Source of the DNA: an uncultured Clostridia bacterium
Lineage (GTDB): Bacteria > Bacillota > Clostridia > Christensenellales > CAG-917
Length of the DNA: 46,911 nucleotides
NCBI GenBank assembly: GCA_947589635.1
Contig: CANQCC010000001.1
Coordinates: 1 to 46,911 of the forward strand
Direction of reading: 5' to 3'
The notes under the pieces were generated by a model. That model did no database searches. It saw nothing but the letters and a program-made list of their open reading frames with translations, and was not told where the DNA came from. The position numbers and the translations under genes are program-made. Positions 11,320 to 33,927 of this stretch are shown in pieces. Every line of letters starts with the position of its first letter. Positions within the stretch are counted from its first letter, which is position 1.

Positions 11320-11362
11320 AAACAAAAAAATAAACTTTTTTGTAAAAAAGCGTCATAAAATA

Positions 11363-11392: not shown

Positions 11393-11434
11393 GTAGACGA
11401 AAAATATTTTTCAACAATTTTCACGGAGGTAGTT

Positions 11435-11920: not shown

Positions 11921-11926
11921 GCCTCT

Positions 11927-12012
11927 GTCGCCGGTTCTGATTGACTCTACGATATATAGATAAGCCACGGTCGCCGGTTTTGATTGACTACGGCGAAAAG
12001 ATAAGCATCAGT
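11927..12012. repeat. 43-bp tandem duplication (2 copies)
   Basis: The two copies are GTCGCCGGTTCTGATTGACTCTACGATATATAGATAAGCCACG and GTCGCCGGTTTTGATTGACTACGGCGAAAAGATAAGCATCAG. They lie between convergent genes, and the second copy overlaps the rluA-family stop codon. Confidence 0.7.
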
Positions 12013-13688: not shown

Positions 13689-15370
13689 TTTTCTATTTTC
13701 TTGATGGTCACGATTACTTTGTGGCCGTTTACGTCGAGTTCCTTTCTGAAGCCGTCTCCGCCGTTTTCGACAATGCCGTCGCACAGCACGTCGGCGAAGA
13801 ATTTTGCGTCGTCGAGGACTTGCTTTGCCATGCCTTCCGCCGAGTAGTTCAGCAGGATATGGTCGGTGACCTCAAATCCCGCCTCCTTGCGCATATTCTG
13901 GACCTTGCTGACAAGCTCGCGCTCGATGCCCTCAAGCACAAGGTCTTCTGTAAGCGACGTATCAAGCACGACCGTGGTCTCGCCGTCGGATTCCGAGGAG
14001 AATCCCTCCTTGTTCTTTGCGGTTATAAGCAGATCCTCTTCGCTCAGCACGATCTGAGTGCCGTCGATCTCGCAGACGAACGCGCTCTTGACATCCTGTT
14101 CCGTGCCGCGTATTTCTCTGTACTCGTCCTTTATCTCGTCGATGGCTTTGCGCTTTTTAATTGCCTCGATGACATCCGCCGGGCGCTCCGCAAGCAGAGC
14201 CTTTATCTTGCCGAGCAGAGGCCCGTATTTGGGGCCGAGCGTACGAAGTTGAGGCTTTATCTCATAGCTGATATAGCCGTCGCTGTCCGACGAGGGTTGC
14301 ACTTCTTTGACGTTGAGTTCGTCCTCAACAAGCTGTTTCAGCTCCTCGGTAAGTTCCCATCTGCCGTTGTACATCAGCTTTGAAAGGGGTTGCCTGTTTT
14401 TGAGGTTGGATTTGTTTCGCGCTGCCCTGCCAAGCACCACAAGTTTCAGCACGTTGTTCATGCCCGTCTCGAGCGCGCGGTCTATTCTCGACTCGTCGCA
14501 ATTCGGGAAAGAGGTGAGATGCACGCTTTCGGGAGCGGTCGGGTCGAAGTTTACGACAAGATTCTGATAAATGCTCTCCGCCATAAACGGCACATAGGGC
14601 GCGATAAGCCTTGAGAGCGTGGACAACACCGTATAAAGCGTCATATACGCCGCCTCTTTGCTCTTTGTCATCTCGCTGCCCCAGAAGCGCTCGCGGGAGC
14701 GGCGCACGTACCAATTGGACAGATTGTCGCAAAACTCCTCTATCGCGCGGGAAGTTTCGGTGATCTTGTATTGCTCAAGCCCCTTGTCCACAAAGTCTAT
14801 CAGACTGTTGAGCCCCGAAAGTATCCATCTGTCGAGGATATTCAGCTTGCAGTCCTCAAGTTTATGTTTTGTGGGGTCAAATTTGTCTATTTCCGCGTAC
14901 AGCACATAAAACGCGTAAGTGTTCCAAAGCGTGCCCATAAACTTGCGTTGAGATTCGCTGACGTTTTCCGCTGCGAACCTCGAGGGCAGCCACGGCGCGG
15001 ACGCCGTATAAAAATACCACCTTGTCGCGTCGGCGCCCTGTTTGTCGAGCACGCTCCACGGGTCGACGACGTTGCCCTTGTGTTTGGACATCTTTATGCC
15101 GTCCTTGTCGTTGACGTGCCCCAAAACTATGCAATTTTTGAAGGGCGCGCGGCCGAAGAGTATGGTGTTTATCGCAAGCAGCGTATAAAACCAGCCTCTT
15201 GTCTGATCCACGGCCTCGGAGATGAAGTCCGCGGGGAAAACTTCATCGAATATTTCCTTGTTTTCAAAGGGATAATGCCACTGCGCAAACGGCATGGAGC
15301 CGCTGTCAAACCAGCAGTCAAGCACTTCGGGAGTGCGCTCCATCTCGCCGCCGCATTCGCACTGCGTCAA
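13685..15370 (-). CDS. ileS: isoleucine--tRNA ligase, C-terminal fragment (frame-disrupted gene)
   Basis: Contains CECGGEMERTPEVLDCWFDSGSMPF, the KMSKHKGN (KMSKS) motif, and anticodon-binding and C-terminal domains. It has no credible start of its own and continues the upstream fragment after a 1-nt frame change. Confidence 0.9.
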   Translation of the reverse strand: MTQCECGGEMERTPEVLDCWFDSGSMPFAQWHYPFENKEIFDEVFPADFISEAVDQTRGWFYTLLAINTILFGRAPFKNCIVLGHVNDKDGIKMSKHKGNVVDPWSVLDKQGADATRWYFYTASAPWLPSRFAAENVSESQRKFMGTLWNTYAFYVLYAEIDKFDPTKHKLEDCKLNILDRWILSGLNSLIDFVDKGLEQYKITETSRAIEEFCDNLSNWYVRRSRERFWGSEMTKSKEAAYMTLYTVLSTLSRLIAPYVPFMAESIYQNLVVNFDPTAPESVHLTSFPNCDESRIDRALETGMNNVLKLVVLGRAARNKSNLKNRQPLSKLMYNGRWELTEELKQLVEDELNVKEVQPSSDSDGYISYEIKPQLRTLGPKYGPLLGKIKALLAERPADVIEAIKKRKAIDEIKDEYREIRGTEQDVKSAFVCEIDGTQIVLSEEDLLITAKNKEGFSSESDGETTVVLDTSLTEDLVLEGIERELVSKVQNMRKEAGFEVTDHILLNYSAEGMAKQVLDDAKFFADVLCDGIVENGGDGFRKELDVNGHKVIVTIKKIEK

Positions 15371-16853
15371 TATAGGGACGATGCAACTCTATATCGCCGT
15401 CGATGTGTCCGAGGCGTTTAAGCTCCTCCTTAGAGCCGACTACATGCACTTTTCCGCACTTTTTACACACCCAGATGGGAAGCGGCGTGCCCCAATAGCG
15501 CTCGCGGGAAATGCCCCAATCTATGACGTTCTCCAGGAAATTGCCCATACGCCCCGTGCGGATGGTATCGGGCATCCAATTGACGCTGTTGCAGGACTTT
15601 ATAAGCTGATCCCTTACGGCGGTGACTTTGATAAACCATGTGCTGCGCGCATAGTATAAAAGCGGAGTGTCGCAGCGCCAGCAGAAAGGATAGCTGTGCG
15701 TAAAACGCATTGTCTTGAACAGCTTGTTTTCCGCTTTCAGCTTTTTGATTATCTCCTTATCGCCGTCCTTGCAGAATACGCCTGCAAGGTCGGTGATCGC
15801 GGCTTTGAATCTGCCGCGCTCGTCCACCATCTGCACAAACGGCAGGTCGTATTTTTTGCCCACGCGGCTGTCGTCCTCGCCGAATGCGGGCGCGATGTGC
15901 ACTATGCCGGAGCCGTCTGTCAAAGTGACGTAGCCGTCGTTTGTGACATAGTACGCCTTTTTGTCAACTCCGCAGTCGTAGTCGAACAGCGGCTCGTACT
16001 GCGCGTATTCATAATCTTTACCCTTCTTGGTGGATATTTTTGTATAATCCTTGCCGTCAAACAGCTTTTCGACAAGCGCGTCCGCAAGAATGTATCTTTC
16101 GCCGTCGCACTCGATCTCGGAGTAATCCTCCTTGCCGTTCATGCAAAGCGCGACGTTTGAAGGAAGCGTCCAAGGAGTTGTCGTCCAGACAAGAAAATAT
16201 GCGTTGTCTCTTCCCTTAACGGGGAATTTGACGAAGACGGAAGTCTCCTCGACGTCCTTATAGCCCTGCGCCACTTCGTGTGAGCTGAGCGCCGTCCCGC
16301 AACGAGGACAATACGGCTGAATTTTGTAGCCCTTGTACAAAAGCCCCTTGTCCGCCATTTGCTTCAGCGCCCACCACACCGATTCGATATAGTTGTCGTC
16401 ATAGGTGATATAGGGGTTTTTCATGTCCGCCCAATAGCCGATGCGGTCGGACATCTTTTGCCACTCGTCCGTATATTTGAACACGGACTCCTTGCACTTC
16501 TTTATGAAAGGTTCTATGCCGTATTTTTCGATTTCCTGCTTGCCGTCGATACCGAGCTGTTTTTCCACTTCGAGTTCGACGGGAAGGCCGTGCGTATCCC
16601 AGCCCGCCTTGCGCAAAACGTGGTATCCCTTCATGGTCTTGTAACGCGGGATGATGTCCTTCATGACTCGGGTGAGGATGTGCCCTATGTGCGGCTTTCC
16701 GTTGGCGGTGGGAGGGCCGTCGTAAAAACTGAACTCGGGACCGCCCTCATTCTTTTTGACGCTCTTTTCAAATATGCCGTTCTCTTTCCAGAAGGCGAGC
16801 ACTTCCTTTTCTCTCTCGACGAAATTAAGATTTGTGTCAACAGGTTTGTACAT
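15318..16853 (-). CDS. ileS: isoleucine--tRNA ligase, N-terminal fragment (frame-disrupted gene)
   Basis: Starts MYKPVDTNLNFVEREKEVLAFWKE and carries the HIGH motif (GKPHIGHILTR) and the editing domain. Homology runs through ...ELHRPYID and then drifts into 17 unrelated codons ending at TGA 15318. Confidence 0.9.
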   Translation of the reverse strand: MYKPVDTNLNFVEREKEVLAFWKENGIFEKSVKKNEGGPEFSFYDGPPTANGKPHIGHILTRVMKDIIPRYKTMKGYHVLRKAGWDTHGLPVELEVEKQLGIDGKQEIEKYGIEPFIKKCKESVFKYTDEWQKMSDRIGYWADMKNPYITYDDNYIESVWWALKQMADKGLLYKGYKIQPYCPRCGTALSSHEVAQGYKDVEETSVFVKFPVKGRDNAYFLVWTTTPWTLPSNVALCMNGKEDYSEIECDGERYILADALVEKLFDGKDYTKISTKKGKDYEYAQYEPLFDYDCGVDKKAYYVTNDGYVTLTDGSGIVHIAPAFGEDDSRVGKKYDLPFVQMVDERGRFKAAITDLAGVFCKDGDKEIIKKLKAENKLFKTMRFTHSYPFCWRCDTPLLYYARSTWFIKVTAVRDQLIKSCNSVNWMPDTIRTGRMGNFLENVIDWGISRERYWGTPLPIWVCKKCGKVHVVGSKEELKRLGHIDGDIELHRPYIDAVRMRRRDGAHSRSA

Positions 16854-17294: not shown

Positions 17295-17417
17295 AAAACA
17301 CAATTCGTGTTTTTTATTTGGCTGTACTTTTACATACAAAACACAATGCGTGTTGTAAAAGGAAAGATTTTGATGTTATTTGCTAACAATCATGTCGATT
17401 GAAACACGTATCGTGCT
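17295..17417. promoter_or_regulatory. three AACAC-N5-GTG(T/C)T palindromes upstream of the ABC transporter operon
   Basis: The sites are AAAACACAATTCGTGTTTT (17295-17313, perfect 7-bp arms), AAAACACAATGCGTGTTGT (17338-17356) and AACACGTATCGTGCT (17403-17417). The region is AT-rich and non-coding. Confidence 0.35.
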
Positions 17418-17577
17418 CATATGTAATTGCGCTTTGAAACAGCGGGAGGTAAATGTCATGGATTTTTACATTGATATCCTCGGGTCAAAACGGCTTAGAA
17501 TGACGCTTGTGCAAATTTTTAATTGTACATTTCAAACTATGTGTTATAATGTTATCATTAAATTTGAAGAGGTTTAT

Positions 17578-18774
17578 ATGAACGCTCTTGAAACAATAAA
17601 ACTTTCAAAGTCCTATCGCGGCAAGGTCGTACTTGACGGGGTCAGCATCTGCGTGCGCGAGGGGGAGATATACGGGCTTGTCGGGCGCAACGGCGCGGGC
17701 AAGACCACGCTTATTCGCGCTCTGCTCGGTTTGGCGAAGCCGGACAGCGGAGAGGTAAGGATAAACGGCGTCTCAACACGCGAAGGGTTGGAGTTCGAGC
17801 GGAGGAAGATAGGTTCGCTTATCGACAGCCCTGCCCTTGCCCTGCATCTCAGCGCGCTCGACAATATGAAATCGGCGGCGCTTGCGTTTGGGCACTACGA
17901 CGTAAAAAAACTTCGCGACCTTATCGAGCGCGTGGGGCTTGACCCGAACAATCCGATGAAGGTCAAAAACTACTCCCTCGGCATGAAGCAGCGCCTTGCC
18001 ATAGCCATCGCTCTCATTGGCGATCCAAGCATACTTATCCTTGACGAACCCGTCAACGGGCTGGACCCCGCGGGCATATTTGAAGTGCGCGAGCTTTTGC
18101 AACGCCTCAACCATACCGATCACATCACGATTCTTATATCGTCGCATCTGCTTTCGGAGCTTGGCAAGGTCGCAAACAGCTACGGCGTCATCGAGGGCGG
18201 AAAACTTGTCAAAGAATTGCGCTCGTCAGACCTTGAGGAGCTTTGCCGTCCATACTACAAAGTCGTCGTCGGAGATTTGAAGACCGCGCTTAGAGTGGTC
18301 GTTGAAAACTACGGCGCGCACGAGTTTGAGATACTTCCCTACAACACGCTCGCGCTGTACGACATGAGCAAGGACATCTCTTTTGTCGCGACGATGTTCG
18401 CAAAAGCCAACGTCCCCGTGCTTAACATCTATAAATGTGAGGGCGATCTGGAGTCCACCTTTATCTCGCTTATGGGCGGGCTACACGGCGCGGAGACTGC
18501 GACCGGCAATGACGATACTCCCGTTTTTGAGGAGTTGGCGCCGAATTTTGAAGCTCCGATCGGCAGCAAACTTGACGACGCACCCGAAGCCGCCCGGACG
18601 ACGCCCGCAAGCGGCGACAGCATAGAAACTATGTCAGTAAACGACGATAATAGCGCCGAAACTAAATCCACAGACGGAGATGGCGCACAAACGGCGCCTA
18701 CGGACGGAGACATCAAAGCCGAGGAAACTGAAGGCGATACCGCCGAAAATCCGGGCGAAGGAGGCAATTTATGA
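17578..18774 (+). CDS. ABC transporter ATP-binding protein with a ~97-aa acidic, Thr/Gly-rich C-terminal tail
   Basis: Walker A GRNGAGKTT, signature YSLGMKQRL, Walker B ILILDEP. I prefer ATG 17578 (GAAGAGG RBS), which gives the canonical N-terminus MNALETIKLSKSY. An in-frame ATG at 17458 with a GGGAGG RBS is an alternative start. The ORF-track start at 17380 is unlikely. Confidence 0.85.
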   Translation: MNALETIKLSKSYRGKVVLDGVSICVREGEIYGLVGRNGAGKTTLIRALLGLAKPDSGEVRINGVSTREGLEFERRKIGSLIDSPALALHLSALDNMKSAALAFGHYDVKKLRDLIERVGLDPNNPMKVKNYSLGMKQRLAIAIALIGDPSILILDEPVNGLDPAGIFEVRELLQRLNHTDHITILISSHLLSELGKVANSYGVIEGGKLVKELRSSDLEELCRPYYKVVVGDLKTALRVVVENYGAHEFEILPYNTLALYDMSKDISFVATMFAKANVPVLNIYKCEGDLESTFISLMGGLHGAETATGNDDTPVFEELAPNFEAPIGSKLDDAPEAARTTPASGDSIETMSVNDDNSAETKSTDGDGAQTAPTDGDIKAEETEGDTAENPGEGGNL

Positions 18775-19631
18775 GTAACGATCGTTTTTCAATGTGCCTC
18801 GCTTCCGATCTCTTCAGAGTCAAAAAGCTGAAAAGCGTGTTTGTGGCCCTAATCCTGATGTTCCTCATCCTCTTCCTGACCTTTGCCGTGTGCTGGGTCG
18901 GCTCCAACCTGGTAAGCAAGGTTGAGGTGAGCGAAACTCCCTCCATTGAAGGCGAAACGGCGCCCACTATCACACAAGAAGAAAAGGACGGCCTGCTTGC
19001 CGCCCTCGACAGCGTCATCAACGACAGCCTTATGGGATCGGGCGCGATCTGCCTTATGGAGTTTTTGGTGATGATAATCACTTGCATCTTCGTCGGCAAA
19101 GACTTTTCAAACGGAACTATGCGGATCCTCGTCTCGCGAGGCGCAAACCGCGTGCACCTATTTATCTCCAAATGGCTGACGATGGCCATACTTGTCGTGG
19201 CATACTCGCTGTTCGCTCTGCTTGTCAGCGGAATTTTGTACGCGTTCAAAAACGACGGGAGCTTCACGGGATATGATTTCGGCATTCTGATGCGGTGTTT
19301 TTCTCTGCAGCTCCTCTGCAACCTCGCAAGTATGACGATATCGCTTATGATAGCTTTCCTGTGCCGTTCCTCTGGCTCCGCGCTTGGAGTGTCCATAGGC
19401 CTTTATATCATTCTGTCCGTCGCGCTGTCGATAATCTCCACCGTAGTCTCCCTTTCGGGAGGCAATCAAGATTGGATGATGTTTATGCCCATGCAGCAAA
19501 TGAACGTCGCGGCAAGCGCCGGGTCTTACTCCACCGACCAGCTTTGCGCCGTTATCATAATGCCCATCGTCTATATCGCGATAGCTTTCGCTGTGGGCGT
19601 CTCTACCTTCGTCAAGCGCGATATCAAGTGA
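18771..19631 (+). CDS. ABC-2 type transporter permease
   Basis: 286 aa with multiple hydrophobic helices and a large loop after TM1. The start overlaps the ATPase stop (ATGA) and has a GAAGGAGG RBS. Confidence 0.75.
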   Translation: MSNDRFSMCLASDLFRVKKLKSVFVALILMFLILFLTFAVCWVGSNLVSKVEVSETPSIEGETAPTITQEEKDGLLAALDSVINDSLMGSGAICLMEFLVMIITCIFVGKDFSNGTMRILVSRGANRVHLFISKWLTMAILVVAYSLFALLVSGILYAFKNDGSFTGYDFGILMRCFSLQLLCNLASMTISLMIAFLCRSSGSALGVSIGLYIILSVALSIISTVVSLSGGNQDWMMFMPMQQMNVAASAGSYSTDQLCAVIIMPIVYIAIAFAVGVSTFVKRDIK

Positions 19632-19660
19632 TTTGACTGCATTTGCGCGCTTTTATTTTC

Positions 19661-19703
19661 AATAAAAATATATACAGCGGGTACAAACGCCCGCTGTATA
19701 TAT
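19661..19703. terminator. bidirectional terminator (SRP RNA on minus strand, ABC operon on plus strand)
   Basis: Perfect 14-bp stem ATATATACAGCGGG / CCCGCTGTATATAT with an 8-nt loop. A T-run follows on the minus strand (TTTTATT) and a shorter one on the plus strand. Confidence 0.8.
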
Positions 19704-19705
19704 TT

Positions 19706-19971
19706 GCTGTGAGCCAACTTTGACTCCCTCTACCGAAGCGGAAACAGCGCAGGTAACTCCTTCAAAGTTTCCCCATGGCACACGCCAACGCCTGCTTAGT
19801 GCTGCTGCGGTCAAGCTCTGACACGGTTCACAGTATGACATTGCACGGGACCTTGATATCAACACTCCTTACGCTGTGCGGCCAACCATAGCGAAAGCCG
19901 AGGAAGGTGTTCGATACTGCTATTGCGGATTGCAGTTTACAGGGCACCGCAAGCTCCCCATCTATCACAGC
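19706..19971 (-). ncRNA. ffs: signal recognition particle RNA, long Bacillus-type (with Alu domain), about 266 nt
   Basis: The minus strand reads GCUGUGAUAGAUGGGGAGCUUGCGGUGCCCUGUAAACUGCAAUCCGCAAUAGCAG. This matches the B. subtilis scRNA 5' domain as I recall it (GCGGUGCCCUGUACCUGCAAUCCGCUCUAGCAG). Further on, GAACCGUGUCAG...AGCAGCACUAAGCAGG resembles domain IV. The 5' GCUGUGA pairs with the 3' UCACAGC. Its own promoter and terminator flank it. ORF-track entries 19659-19865 and 19876-20076 are spurious. Confidence 0.85.
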
Positions 19972-19977
19972 ATAGAG

Positions 19978-20006
19978 AGTATAGCATTAAACGAAAGTTT
20001 TTGCAA
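19978..20006 (-). promoter_or_regulatory. promoter of SRP RNA
   Basis: On the minus strand: TTGCAA (20006-20001), 17 nt spacer, TATACT (19983-19978). It lies about 7 nt before the proposed RNA 5' end. Confidence 0.6.
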
Positions 20007-20075
20007 CCTAAATATTTCAAATTTGAAAAGCGGATATTGCGACTTAATGCGGAAATTGTTTATATTCGAAAAATA

Positions 20076-20203
20076 AATCCTATACGGCATAAGCGCTGAG
20101 TATAAAATATGCGAAATTAAAATCCCTACGGTTTAAGGGCTGAGTATAAATATGCAAAACAGAATCCCACTGCGGTTTAATGCCGAATATAAATAAGCGA
20201 AGC
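20076..20203. repeat. degenerate tandem repeat, 3 copies of 42-45 bp
   Basis: The three units are AATCCTATACGGCATAAGCGCTGAGTATAAAATATGCGAAATTA, AATCCCTACGGTTTAAGGGCTGAGTATAAATATGCAAAACAG and AATCCCACTGCGGTTTAATGCCGAATATAAATAAGCGAAGC. A weaker fourth unit may lie at 20031-20075. Confidence 0.65.
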
Positions 20204-20224
20204 TACGCTTCGGCGTAGCTTCGC
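20186..20224 (-). terminator. rho-independent terminator of the oxidoreductase gene
   Basis: Perfect 12-bp stem GCGAAGCTACGC-TTCG-GCGTAGCTTCGC, followed on the minus strand by TTATTTATATT. Confidence 0.8.
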
Positions 20225-20244
20225 CAAATGTCCGCAAAAACGGC

Positions 20245-22344
20245 TTAAAGTTTATGGACCGCCACGTCGTAGGCGGAGGCCGTGGCGGAAGAGATGCGGC
20301 CGATGTGGTCTGCGTCGCCTACTATAAACATACGTTCAAATTTACCTTCGAGGTCTTTTGCGAGTTGATTGACCGGGCGGGCGCCGAGCGAAAGAATGAC
20401 GGCGTCAACATCAACGTGTACGGGAGCGCCCTTCTCGACGCATTTTTTGCCTTTATAGATCACGGGCTGCAGGTTGACGCCGCTCTCGTCGATGGAAACA
20501 AGTTTGCTGCGGGTCATAAATTCCGCCTTGCCCTCAAGCCTTGAAAGCGCGTCGTCCACGTGCTGGAACCAAGTGCCCGGGGCTATGGTCGCCGCCATTT
20601 CGACGACGGTGAGCGAAGAGACTCTGTCCGAGATATATTCGGCGACTTCGAGGCCTGTCATGCCGGAGCCGATAATTGCGACGCGTTTTCCGCTGAGGTC
20701 AACCTCGTCGGTAAGCACCTGCGTCGGAATGTAGACATTTTCTCTGTCCGCGCCCGGAATTTTAAGGGATTTATACGCCTCGCCGCCCGTGGCGATTATG
20801 ACCGCGTATGGATCGTAAGAAGCGATGACATCATAGTCCGCGTTTACGCCAAGCAATATTTTTGCGCCGTATTTTTGCGCGTTGACAGCGATATCCTGCG
20901 CGCACCAAGCGATCTTTTCCTTTTTGGGCGGTTTAGACGCCAGGTTTATCTGCCCGCCGATGACGTTTTCCTTTTCGAGCACGACTACGTTGAAACCTCT
21001 GCGTGCGGCAAATTCCGCGGCGGTAAGTCCCGCGACGCCCGCGCCAACAACTACAACGGTCCTGCCGTCGCCGTCATGCGGAAGGGACAAAAACTCCTTC
21101 TCGCTGCCCACGGTCGGATTGACGGAGCAATAGCCGTGGTCGCCTACGTAGGCGTTCTCCTGCATGCTTTCGATGCAATTTAGGCAGCAGATACAGCGCT
21201 TGATCTCGTTTTCTCTGCCCTCGAGCGCTTTGGTCGCCCAATACGGGTCGGCGATATGCGGTCTGCCGAGGGACACAAAGTCCTGCGTGCCCTCTTCAAG
21301 CTGTCTTTCGGCCTGTTCGGGCGTGCGGATGAGGTTTGCGGCAAGCACCGGGATGGAGACTTCCTTCTTGACCGCGGCGGCGAGATATTTGCGCCATCCG
21401 AGGTCGAAAGAGGTGGGCTCCAGCCAATAGTTGAAGGTGTCGTACGCGGCGGAGGAGACGTCTATCGCGTCCACACCGAAGGACGCGATCGCCTTCGCGT
21501 AGCGCAACCCCTCCTTGAAGTCGTATCCGACGTCGGGTTTGCCTATCTTGTCGTAGAACTCGTCGAGCGTGAGGCGCACGATTATGGGATAGTCCCCGCA
21601 CTTTTCGCGTACCCCGTCGATTATCTCCTTCAAAAAGCGCAGGCGATTTTCAAAACTGCCGCCGTATTCGTCCTTGCGCTGATTGGTGTTCGGCGACAAA
21701 AATTGCTGAATGAGATATCCGTGAGTGCCGTGAAGCTCCACGCCGTCCACTCCCGCCTGCTTGCAGCGGAAGGCTGCGTCCACAAATTGCTCCACCAGCT
21801 TTTTGATTTCGCCGTGGCGTAGCGCGCGCACTCTGCCGCCCGCAAAGTAACTCGGCTCGCAAGCGGAGGGCGCCACCGAAGATTTAGTAAGTTTTTTGTC
21901 TATGAGGACTTTGCCGAGCGACGGAGCGACCTTGAAGAGCAACTTCGGGAAGTTTTTGCATACCCGCGTGCAGGCGATCGCAAAAGGAACTGTGCCCACC
22001 GCAAGCCCTACGTTCTGTCTGCCGGGATGATGCAACTGAACAAACAGCTTTGCGCCGTGACGGTGTATGCGATCCGCAAACTCGCGAAGCCCTTCGATAT
22101 GATAATCGTGGCTTGCGCCAAGCTGCGCAAACGCCGCCGCGCCGTGCTTGTCGTTTACGCGGGTTATCTCCGTGATGATAAGTCCCGTGCCGCCCTTGGC
22201 GCGCTCCTCATAATAGTCCATAAGTTGCTCGGTGACGCGCCCGTCAAGCTGTCCGAAGCCCATAAGCATAGGCGACATGACTATGCGGTTTTTGATTTCG
22301 CAGCCGCCTATCTTCATAGGCGAAAACAACATCTTATATTCCAT
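20245..22344 (-). CDS. NADH:flavin (OYE-like) oxidoreductase fused to an FAD/NAD(P)-binding domain (2,4-dienoyl-CoA reductase / enoate reductase family)
   Basis: 699 aa. It has an N-terminal OYE TIM-barrel (MLFSPMKIGGCEIKNRIVMSPM...), a Cys cluster CICCLNC...C, and two Rossmann motifs, VVVVGAGVAGLTAA and VAIIGSGMTGLEVA. Confidence 0.85.
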   Translation of the reverse strand: MEYKMLFSPMKIGGCEIKNRIVMSPMLMGFGQLDGRVTEQLMDYYEERAKGGTGLIITEITRVNDKHGAAAFAQLGASHDYHIEGLREFADRIHRHGAKLFVQLHHPGRQNVGLAVGTVPFAIACTRVCKNFPKLLFKVAPSLGKVLIDKKLTKSSVAPSACEPSYFAGGRVRALRHGEIKKLVEQFVDAAFRCKQAGVDGVELHGTHGYLIQQFLSPNTNQRKDEYGGSFENRLRFLKEIIDGVREKCGDYPIIVRLTLDEFYDKIGKPDVGYDFKEGLRYAKAIASFGVDAIDVSSAAYDTFNYWLEPTSFDLGWRKYLAAAVKKEVSIPVLAANLIRTPEQAERQLEEGTQDFVSLGRPHIADPYWATKALEGRENEIKRCICCLNCIESMQENAYVGDHGYCSVNPTVGSEKEFLSLPHDGDGRTVVVVGAGVAGLTAAEFAARRGFNVVVLEKENVIGGQINLASKPPKKEKIAWCAQDIAVNAQKYGAKILLGVNADYDVIASYDPYAVIIATGGEAYKSLKIPGADRENVYIPTQVLTDEVDLSGKRVAIIGSGMTGLEVAEYISDRVSSLTVVEMAATIAPGTWFQHVDDALSRLEGKAEFMTRSKLVSIDESGVNLQPVIYKGKKCVEKGAPVHVDVDAVILSLGARPVNQLAKDLEGKFERMFIVGDADHIGRISSATASAYDVAVHKL

Positions 22345-23696: not shown

Positions 23697-25202
23697 TCAG
23701 ATGGGCATGTTGTGCGTATTTTTCTGAATGACGTCGTGCGCGCCGCCCTCGACTATGCTTGTTGCTGATACAAGGGTCATCTTGGCGCACTTGTGAAGTT
23801 GTTCTATCGTAGTAGCGCCGCAATTGCACATAGTGGATTTGACCTTGTACAGGCTCTTTTCGACGTTGTCCTTTAGCGCGCCCGCATACGGCACGTAGCT
23901 GTCCACGCCTTCTTCAAACCCGAGGCGGCGTTTCCCGCCCAGGTCATAGCGCTGCCAGTTGCGCGCGCGGTTGCTGCCCTCGCCCCAATACTCCTTGACA
24001 TAGTTGCCGTTGATATTCAGCTTTTCGGTGGGGCTTTCGTCGAAGCGGGCGAAGTATCTGCCCAGCATCAGAAAGTCCGCGCCCATGGCGAGCGCAAGCG
24101 TCATGTGGTAGTCGTGGACTATGCCGCCGTCAGAGCAGATTGGGATGTATATGCCCGTCTTTTTGAAATATTCGTCCCTCGCTTTTGCGACCTCTATGAC
24201 CGCTGTGGCCTGCCCTCTGCCTATGCCTTTAGTCTCGCGCGTGATGCAGATGGAGCCTCCGCCGATGCCCACTTTGATAAAATCCGCGCCGCATTCGGCA
24301 AGAAATTCGAAGCCTTCCTTGTCCACGACGTTTCCCGCGCCAACCTTAACTTTATCGCCGTATTTTGAACGGATAAAGTCCAGAGTGCGCTTTTGCCACA
24401 CCGTATAGCCCTCGCTTGAATCTATGCAAAGCACGTCCGCTCCCGCATCAACAAGCGCGGGCACGCGGGTCTCGTAATCGAGGGTGTTTATTCCTGCGCC
24501 GACCATATACCTCTTGTGCTCGTCGAGGAGTTCGTTGGGATGCGCCTTGTGCGCGTCATAGTCCTTACGGAATATCAGGTACATAAGCCTGCCGTCTTTG
24601 TCCACAATGGGCAGCGAGTTGAGTTTATGGTCCCAGATGATGTCGTTCGCTTCCGCAAGCGTGGTGTTTTCGGGCGCGGTGATAAGCCTTTCGCGCGGGG
24701 TCATAAACTCGCGCACTTTGAGGTCGCCGCTCATTCTGCTGACGCGGTAGTCGCGGCTTGTGACTATACCCATCAAAATTCCGTTCGCGGTGCCGTCGTG
24801 AGTGACCGCCACCGTATTATGTCCTTTCTTCGCCACAAGGTCGATGACGTCCGCAAGAGTGCTGTCCGGCGTCACGTTGCTGTCCGAGACGACAAAGCCC
24901 GCCTTATGGTTTTTGACTTTGCGAACCATTTCCGCCTCGCTTTCCACGCTTTGAGAGCCGTAGATGAAGCTGATGCCGCCCTCTTTGGCAAGCGCTATGG
25001 CAAGCGTGTCGTTTGAGACGGATTGCATTATCGCGCTTACAAGCGGAATGTTGAGAGATATCGCCGGCTGCTCGCCTTTGGCGAACTTTGTGAGCGGAGT
25101 TTTTAAGCAAACGTTAGCGGGGACGCAGTTTTCGTCCGTGTAGCCCGGAATTAGCAGATATTCGCTGAATGTCCTTGACGGCTCGTCAAAATACTTTGCC
25201 AT
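23697..25202 (-). CDS. guaB: IMP dehydrogenase family protein (with CBS pair)
   Basis: 501 aa. Catalytic-loop-like [24 protein letters not shown], a CBS-domain insert, and N-terminus ...[13 protein letters not shown], typical of the IMPDH/GMPR fold. Confidence 0.8.
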
Positions 25203-25231: not shown

Positions 25232-25261
25232 ATGATACATTTTTTATATGGGCGCTGTCAA
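25232..25261 (-). promoter_or_regulatory. putative guaB promoter
   Basis: On the minus strand: TTGACA (25261-25256), 18 nt spacer, TATCAT (25237-25232), with TG upstream. Confidence 0.5.
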
Positions 25262-25314: not shown

Positions 25315-27144
25315 TTACTCCTCGTCTTTCGGAAAGCCCGCCGTCGTCTGCGTAACGGTGAATTGGCAACCGCTTACAATCTCGATAGGCAGCTCTCCTC
25401 TGTCGCCCGCATATTCCGAAGTCGTATCGTTCGTCCAATATTCCCTGCTTGCGTCGGACGGCATGACCGCGCGTTTATAATATTGTGTGGGCAGATCTTT
25501 GAAAAGATCGTTGATAGCCGCCGCCAAAGTGTCGACTATATACTCGTTGCCCGCCACATCGGAATCTCCTCTGAAACCGGCTGCGGAGCACGCCGAGCAC
25601 AGATAGTCGTACGCCTGTCGGTCTATCCCGTCAAAATATACCTTGATGTCCAAAAGGTCGCACACTTTGCGGCCGTTAACGGTCTTTATATGCTCCGCAT
25701 TCGGAGTCATCTTAACCATGACCTTCTTTGCGAAGAATCCGCAATCCCTGTCCACCTCTCTGATGTGATCGTCAAAGTATTTCCTGATGTGCGTGGCAAG
25801 GCGGGCCAGATAGCGGTCGCTGTCAATGATTATGTAGCGCTCTTGCCCCCTGTTTTTCTCTTCTTCCTGCTCCTTTTCTATAAAGAGCTTCAAAATATCC
25901 TTCTTCTGCTTCTCTACGAGGTTTGAAAGAGCGGAGACATCCACGTTGACATGATAATCCGTAGTGATGTCAAACACCCTTTTTTGAGTCTTCTTTATCT
26001 GCAGGAAGGAGCAATCATCAAAATATGCCGCGCCTCCGCCCGCGCCGAGATAGTAGCTGCGCCAATCGCTGAAGGTCGTGTATTCGCCAAGTTTGTTAAA
26101 CATAAACGTGGTGACGACTTCTTTAAGCCTTGAAAGCGCTATGTCATAATTTTTCGCGCATTTCTCCACGATGGCGGCGATATCCTTTGCCTTTTTGGCC
26201 ACGTCGCCTCCCAACGCTTTACCCCTCAGATAGCGCGCTGGCAATCCGCTTTCGCCAAGCGCCTGAGAGGCCTCCATAAAGACGTTGCCGCCGTTTATCA
26301 TGTCCGCATATTCCAAAAACTCTTGCCACGCGTCCTCGCTGAAGCCGACGTTTACGTCAAAGTATTTTGCATAACGATAGCGGCGCTTCTTGTTGAGTCT
26401 CGGCTCAAACGGCTTGACGGAATATAAGACGCCCTCGTCAAACTCCACGCCGGAATCGTAGTGTATCGCGTCCTTTATGACGTTGCGCATGGCCTCGGCG
26501 CCGCACCGCGAGTCGATGATATACGCAAATTCCATAGCGCCCTGCTTGATTTGCCTGATGTGCTGTTTGCCGCGTTTTTTCTCCGCCTTGCGCTCCTCTC
26601 TTTCCTTCTTTTTATCCTTCTTTTCGTCGTCGTAGGAGGAATATTGATGGCGATTGCGGATACGATGTACGCGCTGCCGACGCTCGCGATATCTCCTCTC
26701 GCGAGGCTCCCATTCCCCGGAGTTGTTGTAAAAACGCGCAAAGAGTATGTCGCATATGCCGCCTACCATATAGCAGATGAAAAAGCTCATGGGATACCAA
26801 GCGATAGACTCGTCAAACGTGATGACAAAAAGCAACACAAGATATATCACTCCATATCCAAGCACTATCGACTGAAACAGCAGATTGTGCCTGTCGGTGT
26901 CCACAAACTTAATGATGTTGTTAAAAATGTTTGCGGCAAACAATAAGCCGATCGCCAAAAAGGAGATTATCAGCGCGGAATACCGCGGCATGAATTTAAG
27001 TAACATTATGCCCGTCAAAGTGGATTCGCTCTCCTTGCCGTACCATTTGCCGCCAAGCAAAATGCCGATAAGCGCGATCCATATCGCCCAGGATAAGGCG
27101 GACAGTAAGATCTCGAAAAAGTTGTAGGAACTGCTTCTTCTCAT
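25315..27144 (-). CDS. hypothetical membrane protein: 4 N-terminal TM helices, an Arg/Lys-rich linker, and a ~430-aa domain of unknown function
   Basis: 609-aa ORF with a GAGGT RBS 5 nt before ATG 27144. Hydrophobic helices fall within residues ~10-140. The linker reads PRERRYRERRQRVHRIRNRH...EKKDKKKEREERKAEKKRGK. I recognise no motif in the remainder. Confidence 0.75.
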   Translation of the reverse strand: MRRSSSYNFFEILLSALSWAIWIALIGILLGGKWYGKESESTLTGIMLLKFMPRYSALIISFLAIGLLFAANIFNNIIKFVDTDRHNLLFQSIVLGYGVIYLVLLFVITFDESIAWYPMSFFICYMVGGICDILFARFYNNSGEWEPRERRYRERRQRVHRIRNRHQYSSYDDEKKDKKKEREERKAEKKRGKQHIRQIKQGAMEFAYIIDSRCGAEAMRNVIKDAIHYDSGVEFDEGVLYSVKPFEPRLNKKRRYRYAKYFDVNVGFSEDAWQEFLEYADMINGGNVFMEASQALGESGLPARYLRGKALGGDVAKKAKDIAAIVEKCAKNYDIALSRLKEVVTTFMFNKLGEYTTFSDWRSYYLGAGGGAAYFDDCSFLQIKKTQKRVFDITTDYHVNVDVSALSNLVEKQKKDILKLFIEKEQEEEKNRGQERYIIIDSDRYLARLATHIRKYFDDHIREVDRDCGFFAKKVMVKMTPNAEHIKTVNGRKVCDLLDIKVYFDGIDRQAYDYLCSACSAAGFRGDSDVAGNEYIVDTLAAAINDLFKDLPTQYYKRAVMPSDASREYWTNDTTSEYAGDRGELPIEIVSGCQFTVTQTTAGFPKDEE

Positions 27145-27357
27145 GCTCTACCTCATGTTTGAAAATACATTTTTTGCGGCGGGGACGCTCCGCCGATTTA
27201 TATCCTATTTGTCCTCGCGCGTCCTCGCGCCGCCTATTGTGACCGATATTAATGTCCATCAAGTTTTGCGCAGACAAGCGGGCTTTTGCCGCTGCTTTTA
27301 TTTAATGCCTTTGCGCAAAAGACCGATATGCAGCGGGTATGCTTCCTTTCGACGCGC

Positions 27358-29772
27358 TTAAATCGGAGTGTACATGCGCGCGACCTCTACTGCGCCGTAT
27401 TGGCGGGCTCGCTGCGCGACGCGAGTCGCTTCGGCATGCTCCGCGGCGCGGGTAGCGGCGGACGTGCACCATGCGGGAGTCTTTGAAACGCTTTGGCTTG
27501 AATATGAGGGCTTTGCAGCCTGCGCTGCCTGAGCCTTTCTTGCCTCCTCTGCTCTTCTTGCGGCTTCCGCTGCCTTTCTTGCTTCCTCCGCTCTTCTTGC
27601 GGCCTCGGCTGCTTTTCTTGCTTCTTCCGCCCTGCGAGCGGCTTCCGCGGCTTTGCGAGCTTCTTCGGCTTTCCTTGCCGCCTCCGCTGCCCGTCTTGCT
27701 TCTTCCGCTTTGCGAGCTTCTTCGGCTTTTCTTGCCTCTTCCGCTCTTCTTGCTTCTTCCCGCCTTGCCTCTTCGGCTTTGCGTTCTCTTTCCGCTTTTT
27801 CTTCCGCTTCCAGTCTGTCCTTAAGCTCGTACGCGTGCCTGAAAAGGTTCTGCGCGTAGTTGTACAGCGGGGAGCCGATAAGCACTTTGACATACCAATA
27901 CGCGGCGTTGTAGGCGTCGCGGGATGTGCCGCGCATCTCAAGATCCATGCCTAAGACGACGGACATGATGTCAAGTTTGCGCCTGTCCTCTATCGTGCCG
28001 GCGCTGTTTGCAAGGATGCGGTTGTAGTCCGCGAGGTCCGCCTCATAGCCTTTGGAATTTTCAAAACGCTCGTCTATTTGCGCGATGAGGACGCGTGCTT
28101 CCTGCTCCATGCGCTCCGCTCTTTCTTTTTCCCACTTGATTTTGTTCTCTTCCTTTATCCGTCTTTGTTCCGCTCTTTCGGCGCGCTTTATCCTTCTCTG
28201 CTCCTTTTCCTCGGCGGCGAGCTGCCTGCACATAGCGATCTTGGCTTTGACGTCGTCGGGAATGCCGGGAGGGACCGTGCAATCCTTATAGCACTTCAGC
28301 GCCTCCGTAGGAGATTTTGCAAAACCGTACTTGCCGTACAGATAGATATCTCCCCAAAAGTAGTGCTGTTCCTTTGTGCCTATGGCGTTCTTTTTGAGGG
28401 ACGCCAGACTCTCTTTGAAATATGAGGCGAGATATGCGACCATTTTGTCGTCCATGGCGCTTTGCAAAACCTCGCCCGCGGAGTTTACCACCGTGACGTT
28501 GTGCGGAAACGACGTGCCGTCGCCCGAAGTCTCTATGTCGCGGCAGACCGCGAAGACGGCGGAGGTGCCGTTGCCTATGACGACGCGCTTTATGCCGTCT
28601 AAAGTCTTCCTGTCTATGCGCTCTATCCTGTCTATGCAGTCGGGGAAAATAAGTTCGTCGCCCGAAACTTTGCGGTTTATGACTCTCGCTACGGATATCT
28701 CGCCGTCCTGCGAGACGGAATATTCATAATTGTTTTCAAGATCGAGATATTGTGAATAAGTTATGTACTTGTGCGCCTTAAGGCTACCGCCCGTCTTCGG
28801 CTTTTCGTGAGCTTCCGCGGCCTCCGTAGTGACCGACGACTCGTTATCCTTAGCTTCCTCCTCCGCGATTTTTGTTTCATCAAAAGGCTTGACGTCTTCG
28901 ATCGAGCGCTCGTCCTCAAGTCCGTCCGCACAGATCACGGGAGCGCTAATCGCGCTGTCCTTATATATCTTCACGACGTGCGGAGGCAGCACGATAAGCC
29001 TGTTTGCGGATATTTTTCGCCTTTGCGGAAATTTTCCGTCCGCAAAACAGCCCTCGCCGAAGATGACGTTATTCACGTTTTTCCTCTTATTGGGCGCGAA
29101 ACTTCCGCGAAAACCCTGCAACCCGTCAAACAAAAGCGTATCCCCGTCCACGTCGGAGTGCAGATCCACCGTCTGCGTTACAAACGACGGAAAATGCCCG
29201 CCTATCTTTGCATATTCGTTGCGGGTGTGATCCACCGCGCGGTAGCCGCCCTCGCGCTCGACGTCTCTGAGAAAGCCCAACTTGTTATCGAAAAAATATT
29301 TGAGAGTTTCGGGGGACGTGGGCTCAAATTCGCGCGAAAGTTTTTCAACCTCGCAGCCGACGTTTCCCTCTAAAGTCGCCGAAGCGGGCGCCTCAAGCGG
29401 AAGCACAAGTTCCGCCCCGCCAAACGCCATGCTCCCTATGCGCTCGATCTTTGCCTCCTGCATGTTGACAAGCAACAGCTTTGCGCCCTCAAAAGCGCCT
29501 TCGTCAATCTCGCGGACGTTTTGCCCCATATAGACAAACTCCATCGTCATGGGTTTTTTCTTTAGGGAGTTGAGGCTTTGTATCCTGCTTACGCATTTGG
29601 GGATGTAAACGGCGTCAAGATAAAATCTGCTTGCGTCCTTTGCGAAGCCCGTGACGACGTACATGCCCTTCCTGTTTTTGTCCTTCTTGAAGGTGAAAAG
29701 TAATTTGAGATAATATTTTGCCGCGTCGTCGTCATATACGGCCTGATAGGGACGATAATCTCTTTTTTTCAT
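27358..29772 (-). CDS. hypothetical 804-aa protein: BspA-type leucine-rich repeats, Sel1/TPR-like repeats, and an E/R/K-rich charged helical repeat
   Basis: No signal peptide (MKKRDYRPYQAVYDDD...). BspA-LRR-like segments include MYVVTGFAKDASRFYLDAVYIPKCVSRI, VREIDEGAFEGAKLL and ELIFPDCIDRIERIDRKTLDGIKRVVIG. Sel1-like segments are GDIYLYGKYGFAKSPTEALKCYKD and YNAAYWYVKVL. The C-terminal repeats read AEEARKAAEAARR. The RBS lies inside the end of the upstream gene, with a 6-nt gap. Confidence 0.75.
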   Translation of the reverse strand: MKKRDYRPYQAVYDDDAAKYYLKLLFTFKKDKNRKGMYVVTGFAKDASRFYLDAVYIPKCVSRIQSLNSLKKKPMTMEFVYMGQNVREIDEGAFEGAKLLLVNMQEAKIERIGSMAFGGAELVLPLEAPASATLEGNVGCEVEKLSREFEPTSPETLKYFFDNKLGFLRDVEREGGYRAVDHTRNEYAKIGGHFPSFVTQTVDLHSDVDGDTLLFDGLQGFRGSFAPNKRKNVNNVIFGEGCFADGKFPQRRKISANRLIVLPPHVVKIYKDSAISAPVICADGLEDERSIEDVKPFDETKIAEEEAKDNESSVTTEAAEAHEKPKTGGSLKAHKYITYSQYLDLENNYEYSVSQDGEISVARVINRKVSGDELIFPDCIDRIERIDRKTLDGIKRVVIGNGTSAVFAVCRDIETSGDGTSFPHNVTVVNSAGEVLQSAMDDKMVAYLASYFKESLASLKKNAIGTKEQHYFWGDIYLYGKYGFAKSPTEALKCYKDCTVPPGIPDDVKAKIAMCRQLAAEEKEQRRIKRAERAEQRRIKEENKIKWEKERAERMEQEARVLIAQIDERFENSKGYEADLADYNRILANSAGTIEDRRKLDIMSVVLGMDLEMRGTSRDAYNAAYWYVKVLIGSPLYNYAQNLFRHAYELKDRLEAEEKAERERKAEEARREEARRAEEARKAEEARKAEEARRAAEAARKAEEARKAAEAARRAEEARKAAEAARRAEEARKAAEAARRAEEARKAQAAQAAKPSYSSQSVSKTPAWCTSAATRAAEHAEATRVAQRARQYGAVEVARMYTPI
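27535..27813 (-). repeat. in-frame tandem coding repeat (18-nt and 39-nt units) encoding EEARK / AEEARKAAEAARR
   Basis: 93 codons of E/A/R/K only: ...KAEEARREEARRAEEARKAEEARKAEEARRAAEAARKAEEARKAAEAARRAEEARKAAEAARRAEEARKAAEAARRAEEARK. It also produces spurious alternative-frame ORFs on both strands. Confidence 0.85.
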
Positions 29773-29778
29773 ACCCTG

Positions 29779-30429
29779 TTATTCCTCATTTGCCTCGAGG
29801 GCGAGTTTTTTAAGCGTATCCCTTTCCTTCTCTCCAAGAGGCCTCGTGATCGGGCCAAGCGCCAGGACGTCCGCGATATTTACGACGTCGTAGTTATCTA
29901 TAAAGTCGAGAAGTCCGTCCGTGGAGTCCTCTTCCGCCTGCTCAAGCATATTGTCGTATCTTTCCGCGTATTGAAATTGTCCTCTCAAGCGCACAAGCGC
30001 GCGCGTAAGGTCGAAGATGTCGTGCGTCTTGACCTCTTCGAGGAGATATGCGTCGAAAAATTCGTCGACCTTTTTAAGAGCCTCTTCATGCTTTGAGGGG
30101 TCGGGAAGTATTTGCCTTAGCCTCAGCTTCCTCCACTGCGCCGCGCCGCCGAAGCCCAGCTCCCGCGCGATGACGTCAAACGCCGCGTAACCCTTCTCTC
30201 CGTACGGAATAAACGTCAGATAGTGAGCAAAGATGAGCGCCTTGCCAATTTCGTTGTTTGGGATGTCCTTCATCATCGCGAGAAAATAGATCTCGTCGTC
30301 GACAAGTCCCCAACATCTCTGAAGGCCCTCGACGCCCATGCCCTCTGCGGCGACTCCCACCGAAAGACGGGTGACCATGCGGGGGTCCCAAAGCAAACTG
30401 TCGTAAAACAAGGAATAGATGTCGTCCAT
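29779..30429 (-). CDS. hypothetical acidic soluble protein (216 aa)
   Basis: ORF with a weak AAAGGGA RBS and no motif I recognise. Its stop lies 6 nt before the start of the 804-aa gene. Confidence 0.65.
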   Translation of the reverse strand: MDDIYSLFYDSLLWDPRMVTRLSVGVAAEGMGVEGLQRCWGLVDDEIYFLAMMKDIPNNEIGKALIFAHYLTFIPYGEKGYAAFDVIARELGFGGAAQWRKLRLRQILPDPSKHEEALKKVDEFFDAYLLEEVKTHDIFDLTRALVRLRGQFQYAERYDNMLEQAEEDSTDGLLDFIDNYDVVNIADVLALGPITRPLGEKERDTLKKLALEANEE

Positions 30430-30589
30430 AATATCGTCCCTTTTCGCACTTTGTGCGTGCGTGCGCCCGTGCGCACCTGCGAGGCCTTCTGCGTTGTAGT
30501 CAATGTAAAGGCCAACTTGATTTTACTTTACCGGCGCCGTATGCGCCTTGGCTCTATCGCCCGATATGGCGCTTCTTAACTTTCGGCGC

Positions 30590-31192
30590 TTACTTGCCTT
30601 CTCCGTCGATTTTTTCACTGCCCGCGATCTTTTCCTCGCTTAGCGATACAAATTCCACGCACTGATCTATGTTTTGCTCTATGCCGTTGCGGCGCCTCCT
30701 GAGCGCGGGTCTGTCAAGCAACACGGCGTTTGCCGCCTCCCACAGCGAGAAGGAGCCTATGATGGACAAGATCTCCGCAATAAGCTGCTTGTCCGCAAGC
30801 ACAGACACCAAAAAGTACGCTATCAGCACGCATATGCCAAACACGGACAGCCCTATGGTCTTTTTGAAATTCGCCGCAAAGTCCCAGGTGACGTCGTACG
30901 CCTTCATCGTGTAATGGCGATGCATGAGGCGCTTTATCTCCGCCTGCCTGTCCTCGTCCGCCTCGCCGTGGAAGCGGATCTTGAGCGGAATTTTTGACGG
31001 AATTATGTTTGCTTGCAAGTCGATAAAATCGTATATGTCCTCGCTGAGGTCAAGGTTCGCGCCCGTGGATAGCGGATTGTAAAGCTGATCGTCGGGCGGA
31101 AGTTTGACGTCTATGACGGCGTATCCGTTTTTATCTACGGCTTCCTCGGCGTACTTTATCAACTCCTGCATGCGTTGTCTGTTTTTTGTCAT
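30590..31192 (-). CDS. hypothetical membrane protein (200 aa; soluble N-terminal ~115 aa plus 2 TM helices)
   Basis: TM candidates are IGLSVFGICVLIAYFLVSVL and IAEILSIIGSFSLWEAANAVLL. No family is recognised. It is the first gene of the co-directional block downstream of obg. Confidence 0.65.
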   Translation of the reverse strand: MTKNRQRMQELIKYAEEAVDKNGYAVIDVKLPPDDQLYNPLSTGANLDLSEDIYDFIDLQANIIPSKIPLKIRFHGEADEDRQAEIKRLMHRHYTMKAYDVTWDFAANFKKTIGLSVFGICVLIAYFLVSVLADKQLIAEILSIIGSFSLWEAANAVLLDRPALRRRRNGIEQNIDQCVEFVSLSEEKIAGSEKIDGEGK

Positions 31193-31218
31193 TTTTGTAC
31201 CTACATAAAATATATTTG

Positions 31219-31287
31219 TTCGGATATTTTGTTTATTTCGTCTTATCTCGTTCGGATATCATCGGTTTGTTTGGATATGTCGGATAT
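31219..31287. promoter_or_regulatory. four copies of (T)TCGGATAT / TTGGATAT in the obg to gene-A intergenic region
   Basis: Copies lie at 31219-31227 (TTCGGATAT), 31251-31259 (TTCGGATAT), 31271-31278 (TTGGATAT) and 31280-31287 (TCGGATAT). On the coding (minus) strand the motif reads ATATCCGAA. It lies 27-95 nt upstream of ATG 31192. Confidence 0.4.
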
Positions 31288-31292
31288 CTTGT

Positions 31293-33927
<2,635 letters not shown>

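Follow-up and report, generated by a model that had tools for sequence, protein, structure and literature searches.

Membrane effectors with two or four transmembrane (TM) helices in CBASS-type systems, and SLATT-like proteins, combine a bundle of TM helices with a cytoplasmic sensing domain. They are named here for a resemblance in layout, and no homology to them is claimed. The DNA examined is a stretch of 46,911 nt from an uncultured Clostridia bacterium (assembly GCA_947589635.1, contig CANQCC010000001.1, positions 1 to 46,911), called the window below. Between obg and guaB it carries a block of four minus-strand genes, A, B, C and D (Table 1). Like the effectors named above, D has a multi-helix TM module fused to cytoplasmic domains and comes with a small upstream gene, B; the B-D pair is also patchy in close relatives, and its soluble part evolves fast and its membrane part is conserved. 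Unlike them, the pair shows no sequence, profile or fold similarity to these effectors, has no cyclase, NTPase or nuclease partner, lies outside any defence-island context and belongs to one narrow lineage. Comparison with related genomes showed that B and D form a rare, dispensable pair of genes conserved in a fixed order, that A is a stand-alone gene which lies beside B-D only by synteny in one small clade, and that C, an orphan specific to this species, has been inserted between the pair.

A preliminary description of the window had presented A-D as uncharacterised genes with no recognisable enzyme and had recommended profile searches, and these agree with it. Scans of the four proteins against Pfam, NCBIfam, PADLOC and PHROGs gave no family at threshold. 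Below threshold there was noise (a tape-measure PHROG on the charged tail of C, DUF2207_C, PsiE), and the PADLOC-DB v2 defence hidden Markov models matched none of the four with any family at E up to 1. Sequence searches of the PDB with A, B, C and D found no relative, and when all members of the A, B and D families were scanned with Pfam the result was noise, for instance Yip1 at 0.017. A-D are thus unrelated to any described family in the libraries searched, which is a measure of distance and not a demonstrated new mechanism.

D proved to be rare. When 1.84 billion representatives were searched exhaustively with an HMMER profile, a search made for D alone among the four proteins, five clusters came up, and a word-indexed search with D gave at least one homolog among the matches listed. 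We assembled the B-D loci from the contigs of the five D clusters and from the contigs of close A homologs; related loci carry L numbers below. The gene order is A-B-D-guaB(-folD) in L001 and L009/L010, and UDG-B-D-(GerQ), without A and without guaB, in L076-78. In L079 we observed the tail of a B-like open reading frame (ORF), D and a GH16 gene, and the contig of L080 is too short to show what precedes D. In these relatives B is located immediately upstream of D wherever the contig shows sequence 5′ of D, with gaps of 24 nt (L001), 32 nt (L076-78), ~57 nt (L079) and 172 nt (L009/L010). When the window is included, where C stands in between, the spacing ranges from 24 nt to 2.6 kb; in L001, L009/L010 and L076-78 the pair occurs without C. 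No similarity was detected between the C-D spacer of the window and the sequences that separate B from D in relatives. By eye, textbook TTGACA-N18-TATAAT promoters of the sigma-70/sigma-A type were recognised upstream of B in L009 and L076, and the A-B spacer of the window contains no clear promoter.

Between lineages the identity falls to 27% for B and to ~25% for D. The charge pattern is nevertheless kept, as B is acidic and the D linker basic in every lineage, even though the sequence of the linker is unconserved. The same order and adjacency in three neighbourhoods (between A and guaB, between UDG and GerQ, and beside GH16), together with the conserved charges, identify B-D as a unit. The changes in D between the near-identical strains L009 and L010 (two synonymous, one nonsynonymous and one in-frame 12-nt indel) indicate that D is maintained as a working gene. 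Trees of D group the window with L001, and in those of GuaB, A and B the partner of L001 is L009. In the TM part, D of the window is 72% identical to that of L001 and 49% to that of L009; for the soluble part the values are 42% and 23%, respectively. The conflict between the D tree and the host tree could reflect allele exchange or uneven rates.

The genes found next to B-D are guaB/folD, UDG, FeoAB, GerQ, TsaE and GH16, with no defence-island or mobile-element genes among them. Searches by tblastn and by profile of phages, plasmids and IMG/VR revealed no B-D relatives, and no flanking direct or inverted repeats were found at the block. B-D is linked to no phage, plasmid, viral contig, defence island or mobile-element boundary. 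We rejected the possibility that the pair is cargo of a mobile element, given the lack of phage, plasmid and viral relatives, the lack of flanking repeats and a native G+C content at third codon positions (GC3). In the reading that we favour, B-D is the only real module in the block, an accessory two-gene operon that is rare and confined to a few gut Clostridia related to one another.

Gene A shows a very different distribution. In a profile scan we detected it in 62 species-representative genomes, mostly of rabbit-gut Clostridia, and tblastn with B, C and D placed B and D beside it in one of them (L014, the same contig as L009). Clustering of all ORFs within ±4 kb of A across loci gave no recurrent neighbour; elsewhere A lies near DUF1292/RuvX, an Mrr-type nuclease, an HTH gene or the sigF operon, among others. 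Relatives of A carry their own sigma-70-type promoter upstream, of the TTGACTTT…TGCTAAAAT type. The single B-D neighbour in 62 genomes, the lack of a recurring neighbour and the promoters in relatives together indicate that A is independent. Its family comprises 36 homologs in the protein index, with identity down to 32%, and distant relatives (24–35% identity) come from metagenome-assembled genomes (MAGs) of Bacilli, Tenericutes and Acholeplasmataceae. A Pfam scan of the 36 members matched no model, the NDUF_B4 hit at 5e-4 in two of them being noise.

The layout of A consists of a predicted cytoplasmic head of ~110 aa, a TM hairpin and then a basic stretch. The soluble head and two TM helices described earlier were recovered, as one strong TM segment (115–133) and a second, conserved one that is less hydrophobic (137–158); E140, S143, G146 and W151 are invariant in the hairpin. 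Homology of A to D was examined and rejected (hhalign probability <1%). Members of the family are ~190-aa proteins with 19 invariant residues, including H93, Y94, D100 and D104, and the TM helix carries the motif E-I-L-S-x-x-G-x-F-S-L-W-E. In L005/L006 the A homolog (8444–9085 in L005) directly follows a gene for a restriction-type nuclease (Mrr_cat/NA-iREase1); beyond it, on the opposite strand, come genes of 212 aa and of at least 1612 aa. This Mrr-type nuclease site is the only defence-like neighbourhood that we saw, and A alone is involved in it.

C starts 6 nt after the stop codon of B and is absent from every other B-D locus. No relative of its residues 1–645 was found among the matches listed for an index of 5.8 billion proteins, nor in phage or plasmid records, JGI metagenome or IMG/VR contigs. 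Complete C is absent from a collection of 15 billion proteins under the seven start codons tested; A, B and D of the same contig are present there. Comparisons at the protein and DNA level with the window itself and with 80 related loci also gave no relative, and the idea that C has a paralog there was therefore dropped. Three independent samples of the species (DRR855147, DRR855152 and DRR855157) carry the order obg-A-B-C at 99.6% identity, which shows that C is not an assembly artefact. The short-read contigs of all three samples end inside C; that of L081 ends at 27572, within the tandem-repeat tract that encodes the charged tail. Thirteen of the 18 strain differences fall in C, amounting to nine nonsynonymous and two synonymous codon changes, and A and B are invariant.

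The preliminary description had assigned BspA-type leucine-rich repeats (LRRs), Sel1-like repeats and an E/R/K charged helix to C, and the two repeat labels were not confirmed, being sub-threshold hints. LRR_5 (PF13306) scored 14.6 bits with residues 1–300 and 12.7 bits with the full-length protein against a cutoff of 27.7, and Sel1 (PF08238) reached 13.5 bits against a cutoff of 30.7, only when the segment was scanned alone. What C shares with BspA LRR_5 and Sel1 scaffolds is a weak resemblance of one 39-aa stretch (80–118) and one 26-aa stretch (470–495) to the repeats. In contrast to such scaffolds, the scores are at about half the gathering threshold and each repeat is represented by a single stretch, with no array. 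BspA-like proteins are usually surface-exposed. C differs from them in having no signal peptide, as had been stated before: no TM, signal-like or hydrophobic segment was detected. The charged helix is real. Tandem DNA repeats encode it, and the 105 aa of residues 651–755 include 33 K/R and 28 D/E. Its alternating, heptad-like E/R/K/A repeats are similar to those of ER/K single α-helices (SAHs) and charged coiled coils; unlike a typical SAH, the segment is of young tandem-repeat origin and lies in a bacterial orphan protein. In its native composition, lack of homologs and elevated nonsynonymous change, C is similar to the taxonomically restricted orphan genes that occupy variable slots.

The site itself varies between relatives. 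L015 has nothing between A and guaB (an empty site), and in L004/L018 the A-guaB interval is occupied by a gene for an MFS transporter on the opposite strand; these two arrangements define the slot as variable. The A-guaB spacer of L015 matches the window over a 33-nt stretch at the guaB promoter (97% identity), and nothing else is common to the two. guaB has a promoter of its own, and this marks the downstream edge of the slot. It is followed by a AAAAATTTATA tract, and promoter and tract are conserved in four lineages (the window, L001, L009 and L015) whatever is upstream. The MFS gene of L004/L018 (Lapin-012 bin53) lies at 10667–12496 and encodes 609 aa. A few kb downstream of it (17376–20585), an 813-aa protein without Pfam match is encoded beside a protein with an Ntox50 toxin domain. 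With its insertion/deletion polymorphism among close relatives, the B-D slot resembles the variable slots of taxonomically restricted orphan genes. Unlike random orphans, B and D are an ordered pair kept across lineages diverged to ~25% identity.

The earlier proposal was that the four genes may form one undescribed system, and a comparison of the obg-to-guaB interval in related genomes, to see whether they travel together, had been suggested as a check. Of this, the joint movement of B and D across genomes stood, and that of A (62 genomes, mostly alone) and of C (this species only) did not. Linkage to obg is specific to this genome among the loci compared; B-D, A and C are distributed separately, and elsewhere A occurs alone, as A-B-D, or next to guaB with nothing between, and B-D also occurs by itself. 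A, B, C and D are found together only in same-species strains of 99.6% identity, so that by the comparative test proposed with it the single system fails. We consider it somewhat more probable than an even chance that the block is a variable chromosomal slot holding three independent units, namely A, an accessory B-D membrane complex and the orphan C. This decomposition is much firmer than any mechanism proposed for its parts.

The layout of D that had been read from the sequence, four TM helices, a very basic linker and a large soluble domain, is borne out by an alignment of six lineages (window, L001, L009, L076, L079 and L080), with a soluble part of ~405 aa. The membrane domain is the best conserved part of the protein (37–72% identity between lineages). 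Its invariant polar residues are N72, N75, K79, D84, N87, Q91 and E112, and these are accompanied by the motif W116-Y117-P118. The linker holds 24 K/R in ~60 aa (pI about 10.5–10.8), and its pI lies between 9.0 and 11.0 in all six lineages. In the soluble domain the identity is 21–42%, in hosts whose GuaB proteins are about 84–93% identical. As 28 charged K/R of D fall on the predicted inside and four on the outside, we infer by the positive-inside rule an N-in/C-in topology with a cytoplasmic soluble region.

Structure prediction had also been proposed for the block. B and D were modelled; Foldseek against the PDB gave no significant match for either of them. For D, the AlphaFold model computed with five sequences has a mean pLDDT of 65.9, rising to 80–93 over residues ~220–350 and 400–560, and displays two α/β subdomains. 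The best PDB match had E 0.079 with a TM-score of 0.13, and BFVD gave nothing significant (no E <0.07). A ring-building-motif, OsmC or MAT-like α/β fold was considered for D and discarded, with TM-scores of at most 0.33 for MAT, OsmC and FliF and probabilities of at most 0.38 (OsmC/FliF). An hhalign comparison of the two halves of the soluble part (E 1.2e-4, probability 55%) hints at an internal duplication. Two genes upstream of B-D in L076 (6687–8486), a 599-aa protein is encoded that combines several TM helices and a polybasic stretch with a long acidic tail of low complexity. It was tried as a D homolog for its similar layout and rejected, the hhalign probability being <1%.

B had been described as acidic and soluble, in agreement with its pI of 4.57, its net charge of –17 and its all-α AlphaFold model (pLDDT 79.8, pTM 0.81); the pI is 4.3–5.0 in 4/4 homologs. 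The top fold matches, none of them significant, are HD-domain dNTP triphosphohydrolases (PDB 2dqb, 7lwz and 9p8w). For this fold we required a Foldseek E <1e-3 and a TM-score >0.5. B shares with these enzymes an all-α globular bundle, with a best probability of 0.6 and a TM-score (normalised to B) of 0.46 for 2dqb. In contrast, the E values (0.17–2.6) fall short of significance, and B is about half as large and has no invariant histidine and no H...HD...D metal site, its 'FA[HD]YLT' not being an HD dyad. B was therefore rejected as an HD phosphohydrolase: the 38 invariant columns of the family contain no histidine, and 'FAHY' of the window is 'FADY' in relatives. No defining feature of LRR_5 or Sel1 proteins, HD phosphohydrolases, PADLOC systems, type II toxin-antitoxin pairs, mobile cargo or ring-building/OsmC folds was found in the block.

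In the mechanism that we propose for the favoured three-unit reading, the polar four-helix TM bundle of D would be its constant working part, connected by a flexible polybasic tether to two fast-diverging tandem α/β cytoplasmic domains. B may bind the basic linker or the cytoplasmic domains of D, and would then either regulate D or form an assembly with it on the inner side of the membrane. C would have been inserted precisely between B and D and be translationally coupled to B; it may be a cytoplasmic repeat- or scaffold-like protein whose E/R/K helix arose by a recent tandem-repeat expansion. Several points weigh against this account. All B-D loci come from one narrow clade, within which the adjacency of the two genes could partly be shared descent, and copies of B without D may exist. 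The D tree differs from those of GuaB, A and B, so that B and D have not strictly co-evolved. The 172-nt gap in L009 and the whole gene between B and D in the window indicate that tight co-translation of the two is not required. The binding of B to D is suggested by adjacency and charge complementarity, the TM part of the D model is of low confidence (pLDDT ~55), and the orphan status of C comes from less sensitive searches than the one made with D.

Other explanations were weighed against these data. That A, B, C and D are one lineage-specific system, with C as scaffold, A and D as membrane parts and B as a small partner, we regard as highly improbable. The genes are co-directional, B and C meet at a 6-nt junction, and obg-A-B-C is repeated in three other samples; yet this co-occurrence stays within one species at 99.6% identity, A is without the others in ~60 genomes and normally has its own promoter, C is missing at every other B-D locus, and L076 has B-D without A. 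At the opposite extreme, B and D might be functionally unlinked, taxonomically restricted neighbours whose adjacency is inherited synteny. Their confinement to one narrow gut-Clostridia group, a spacing that varies from 24 nt to 2.6 kb and the differing trees would fit. We nevertheless find this quite unlikely, for the pair and its order are kept in three neighbourhoods while the surroundings change, adjacency persists at identities as low as 27% (B) and ~25% (D), and the complementary charges are conserved.

Two functional readings of the block had been put forward earlier, a conflict or defence module and a sporulation or envelope complex; for B-D, promoter type, context and topology weaken both. 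As a conflict module, acting by anti-phage abortive infection or as a toxin-antidote pair, B-D would use the TM bundle of D as a membrane-disrupting effector and its variable cytoplasmic domains as a sensor, with B as a neutraliser or co-sensor masking the polybasic linker. Such a module could account for the patchiness among close relatives (L015 empty, L018 with the MFS gene), the presence of B-D in at least three different neighbourhoods and the very fast divergence of the soluble domain beside a conserved TM domain. It would also suit a D tree whose mismatch with the host tree could reflect allele exchange, and a small acidic gene placed 24–32 nt upstream of a membrane-protein gene in two lineages. 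We judge it unlikely. A-D have no PADLOC match, the contexts (guaB/folD, UDG, FeoAB, TsaE, GerQ) contain no defence-island or mobile neighbours, the composition is native, and phages, plasmids and viral contigs hold no relatives. Defence systems usually spread by horizontal transfer, whereas this family is very narrow (five clusters in 1.84 billion), and D with its ~600 aa is far above typical toxin size. A type II toxin-antitoxin system was dismissed on the same length and on the lack of DNA-binding (HTH, RHH, AbrB) or toxin Pfam domains at threshold. In its most specific form, an undescribed two-gene membrane-effector conflict module of a little-sampled gut-Clostridia clade, in which an acidic helical partner restrains a 4-TM effector tethered by a polybasic linker to a hypervariable sensor and the folds of both proteins are unmatched in the PDB, the idea seems to us unlikely as well. 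Sporulation membrane proteins are often lineage-specific and fast-evolving, and B-D could likewise be a lineage-specific component of sporulation, germination or envelope morphogenesis, anchored in the membrane of the mother cell or the forespore. Its hosts belong to the spore-forming Clostridia, related loci contain SpoVA, YunB, GerQ, SipL and the sigF operon, and GerQ adjoins D in L076. Still, we hold this to be very unlikely, since the sequences that precede B in L009 and L076 look by eye like housekeeping promoters of the TTGACA-N18-TATAAT type and unlike the sigma-E/F/G/K consensus, B-D is missing in close relatives that presumably also sporulate, all soluble parts are predicted to be cytoplasmic, and no Pfam match to any Spo or Ger family was obtained.

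The features of the locus are collected in Table 1. The coordinates and lengths given before for the four ORFs between obg and guaB all match, as do the intergenic gaps (160 nt for A-B, 6 nt for B-C and 213 nt for C-D) and the placement of the ribosome-binding site (RBS) of C inside the end of B, where GAGGAA occupies the last codons. The composition is native, as had been estimated by eye: GC3 is 0.63–0.69 in A-D vs. 0.65–0.70 in the flanking genes, and the block is no obvious recent island.

Table 1. Positions of genes, protein regions and sequence elements of the A-D block in the window.
Feature	Position	Strand	Remarks
Gene A	30590-31192	-	200 aa ORF
Gene B	29779-30429	-	216 aa ORF
Gene C	27358-29772	-	804 aa ORF
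Gene D	25315-27144	-	609 aa ORF
obg	31293-32561		bounds the A-D block
guaB	23697-25202		bounds the A-D block
D residues 1-141, four-helix membrane domain	26722-27144	-	hydropathy and alignment
D residues 142-204, polybasic linker	26533-26721	-	pLDDT <50
D residues 205-609 and stop, two predicted tandem α/β cytoplasmic subdomains	25315-26532	-	
C-D spacer	27145-27357	-	two G+C-rich hairpins and GAGG RBS of D
Tandem DNA repeats	27533-27796	-	18/21/39/57-nt periods; encode C aa ~651-755
guaB promoter, gcggTTGACA-N18-TAT(C/T)AT	25232-25261	-	window form TTGACA-N18-TATCAT
Three exact ATATCCGA copies (TCGGATAT on + strand)	31220-31287	-	100-nt obg-A spacer

The repeated motif noted earlier upstream of A is present there in three TCGGATAT copies, which start at 31220, 31252 and 31280 (starts 28 and 32 nt apart); one ATATCCAA also lies in this spacer. 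The window as a whole contains five copies of TCGGATAT vs. 1.2 expected, and none of 100 shuffles reached five. The motif is absent upstream of A in all 16 relatives examined, and we thus dropped it as a conserved operator of A. Among the loci compared the repeats are specific to this genome, where they may serve as a regulator site. In strain L081, 2 nt are deleted at 31248–31249, beside the middle copy.

The window, which takes up an entire 46.9-kb contig, is ordinary housekeeping chromosome, with genes for SMC, RNase III, PlsX, AckA-Pta, an IleRS-like protein, tRNA-Gly, SRP RNA, an OYE-type reductase and folD, as well as guaB, obg, GltD-like, PyrK-like, Nth, HisRS, HslU, TrmFO and TopA. The IleRS-like class I aminoacyl-tRNA synthetase gene (tRNA-synt_1, Anticodon_1, DUF5915; 13685–16853, minus strand) is split into two overlapping ORFs (15318–16853 and 13685–15370), with the frame change after 'HRPYIDAV'. 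This suggests a 1-nt indel, which is probably a MAG consensus error and not a real pseudogene of an essential gene. Outside the block, a 364-aa ORF on the plus strand (10225–11319) has no Pfam match at E up to 1e-5. The MAGs closest to the window come from rabbit gut, where they are labelled "uncultured Clostridia bacterium" and bear names of the form "Lapin-…"; the lineage is thinly sampled, Obg of the window being the sole member of its 90%-identity cluster.

Genes that lack annotation and are restricted to one lineage occur commonly in MAGs of uncultured Clostridia, and for now the block is annotation dark matter of an uncultured rabbit-gut lineage that bears on no long-standing open question. 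It teaches that co-occurrence should be checked before co-directional unknown genes of one genome are read as a system. The A family is a good candidate to be named as a new conserved family of membrane proteins or a domain of unknown function. If B-D works as a module, it would be a membrane-anchored two-protein machine whose parts are without detectable sequence, profile or structural relative, and a clear case of a conserved membrane domain joined to a fast-evolving cytoplasmic domain.

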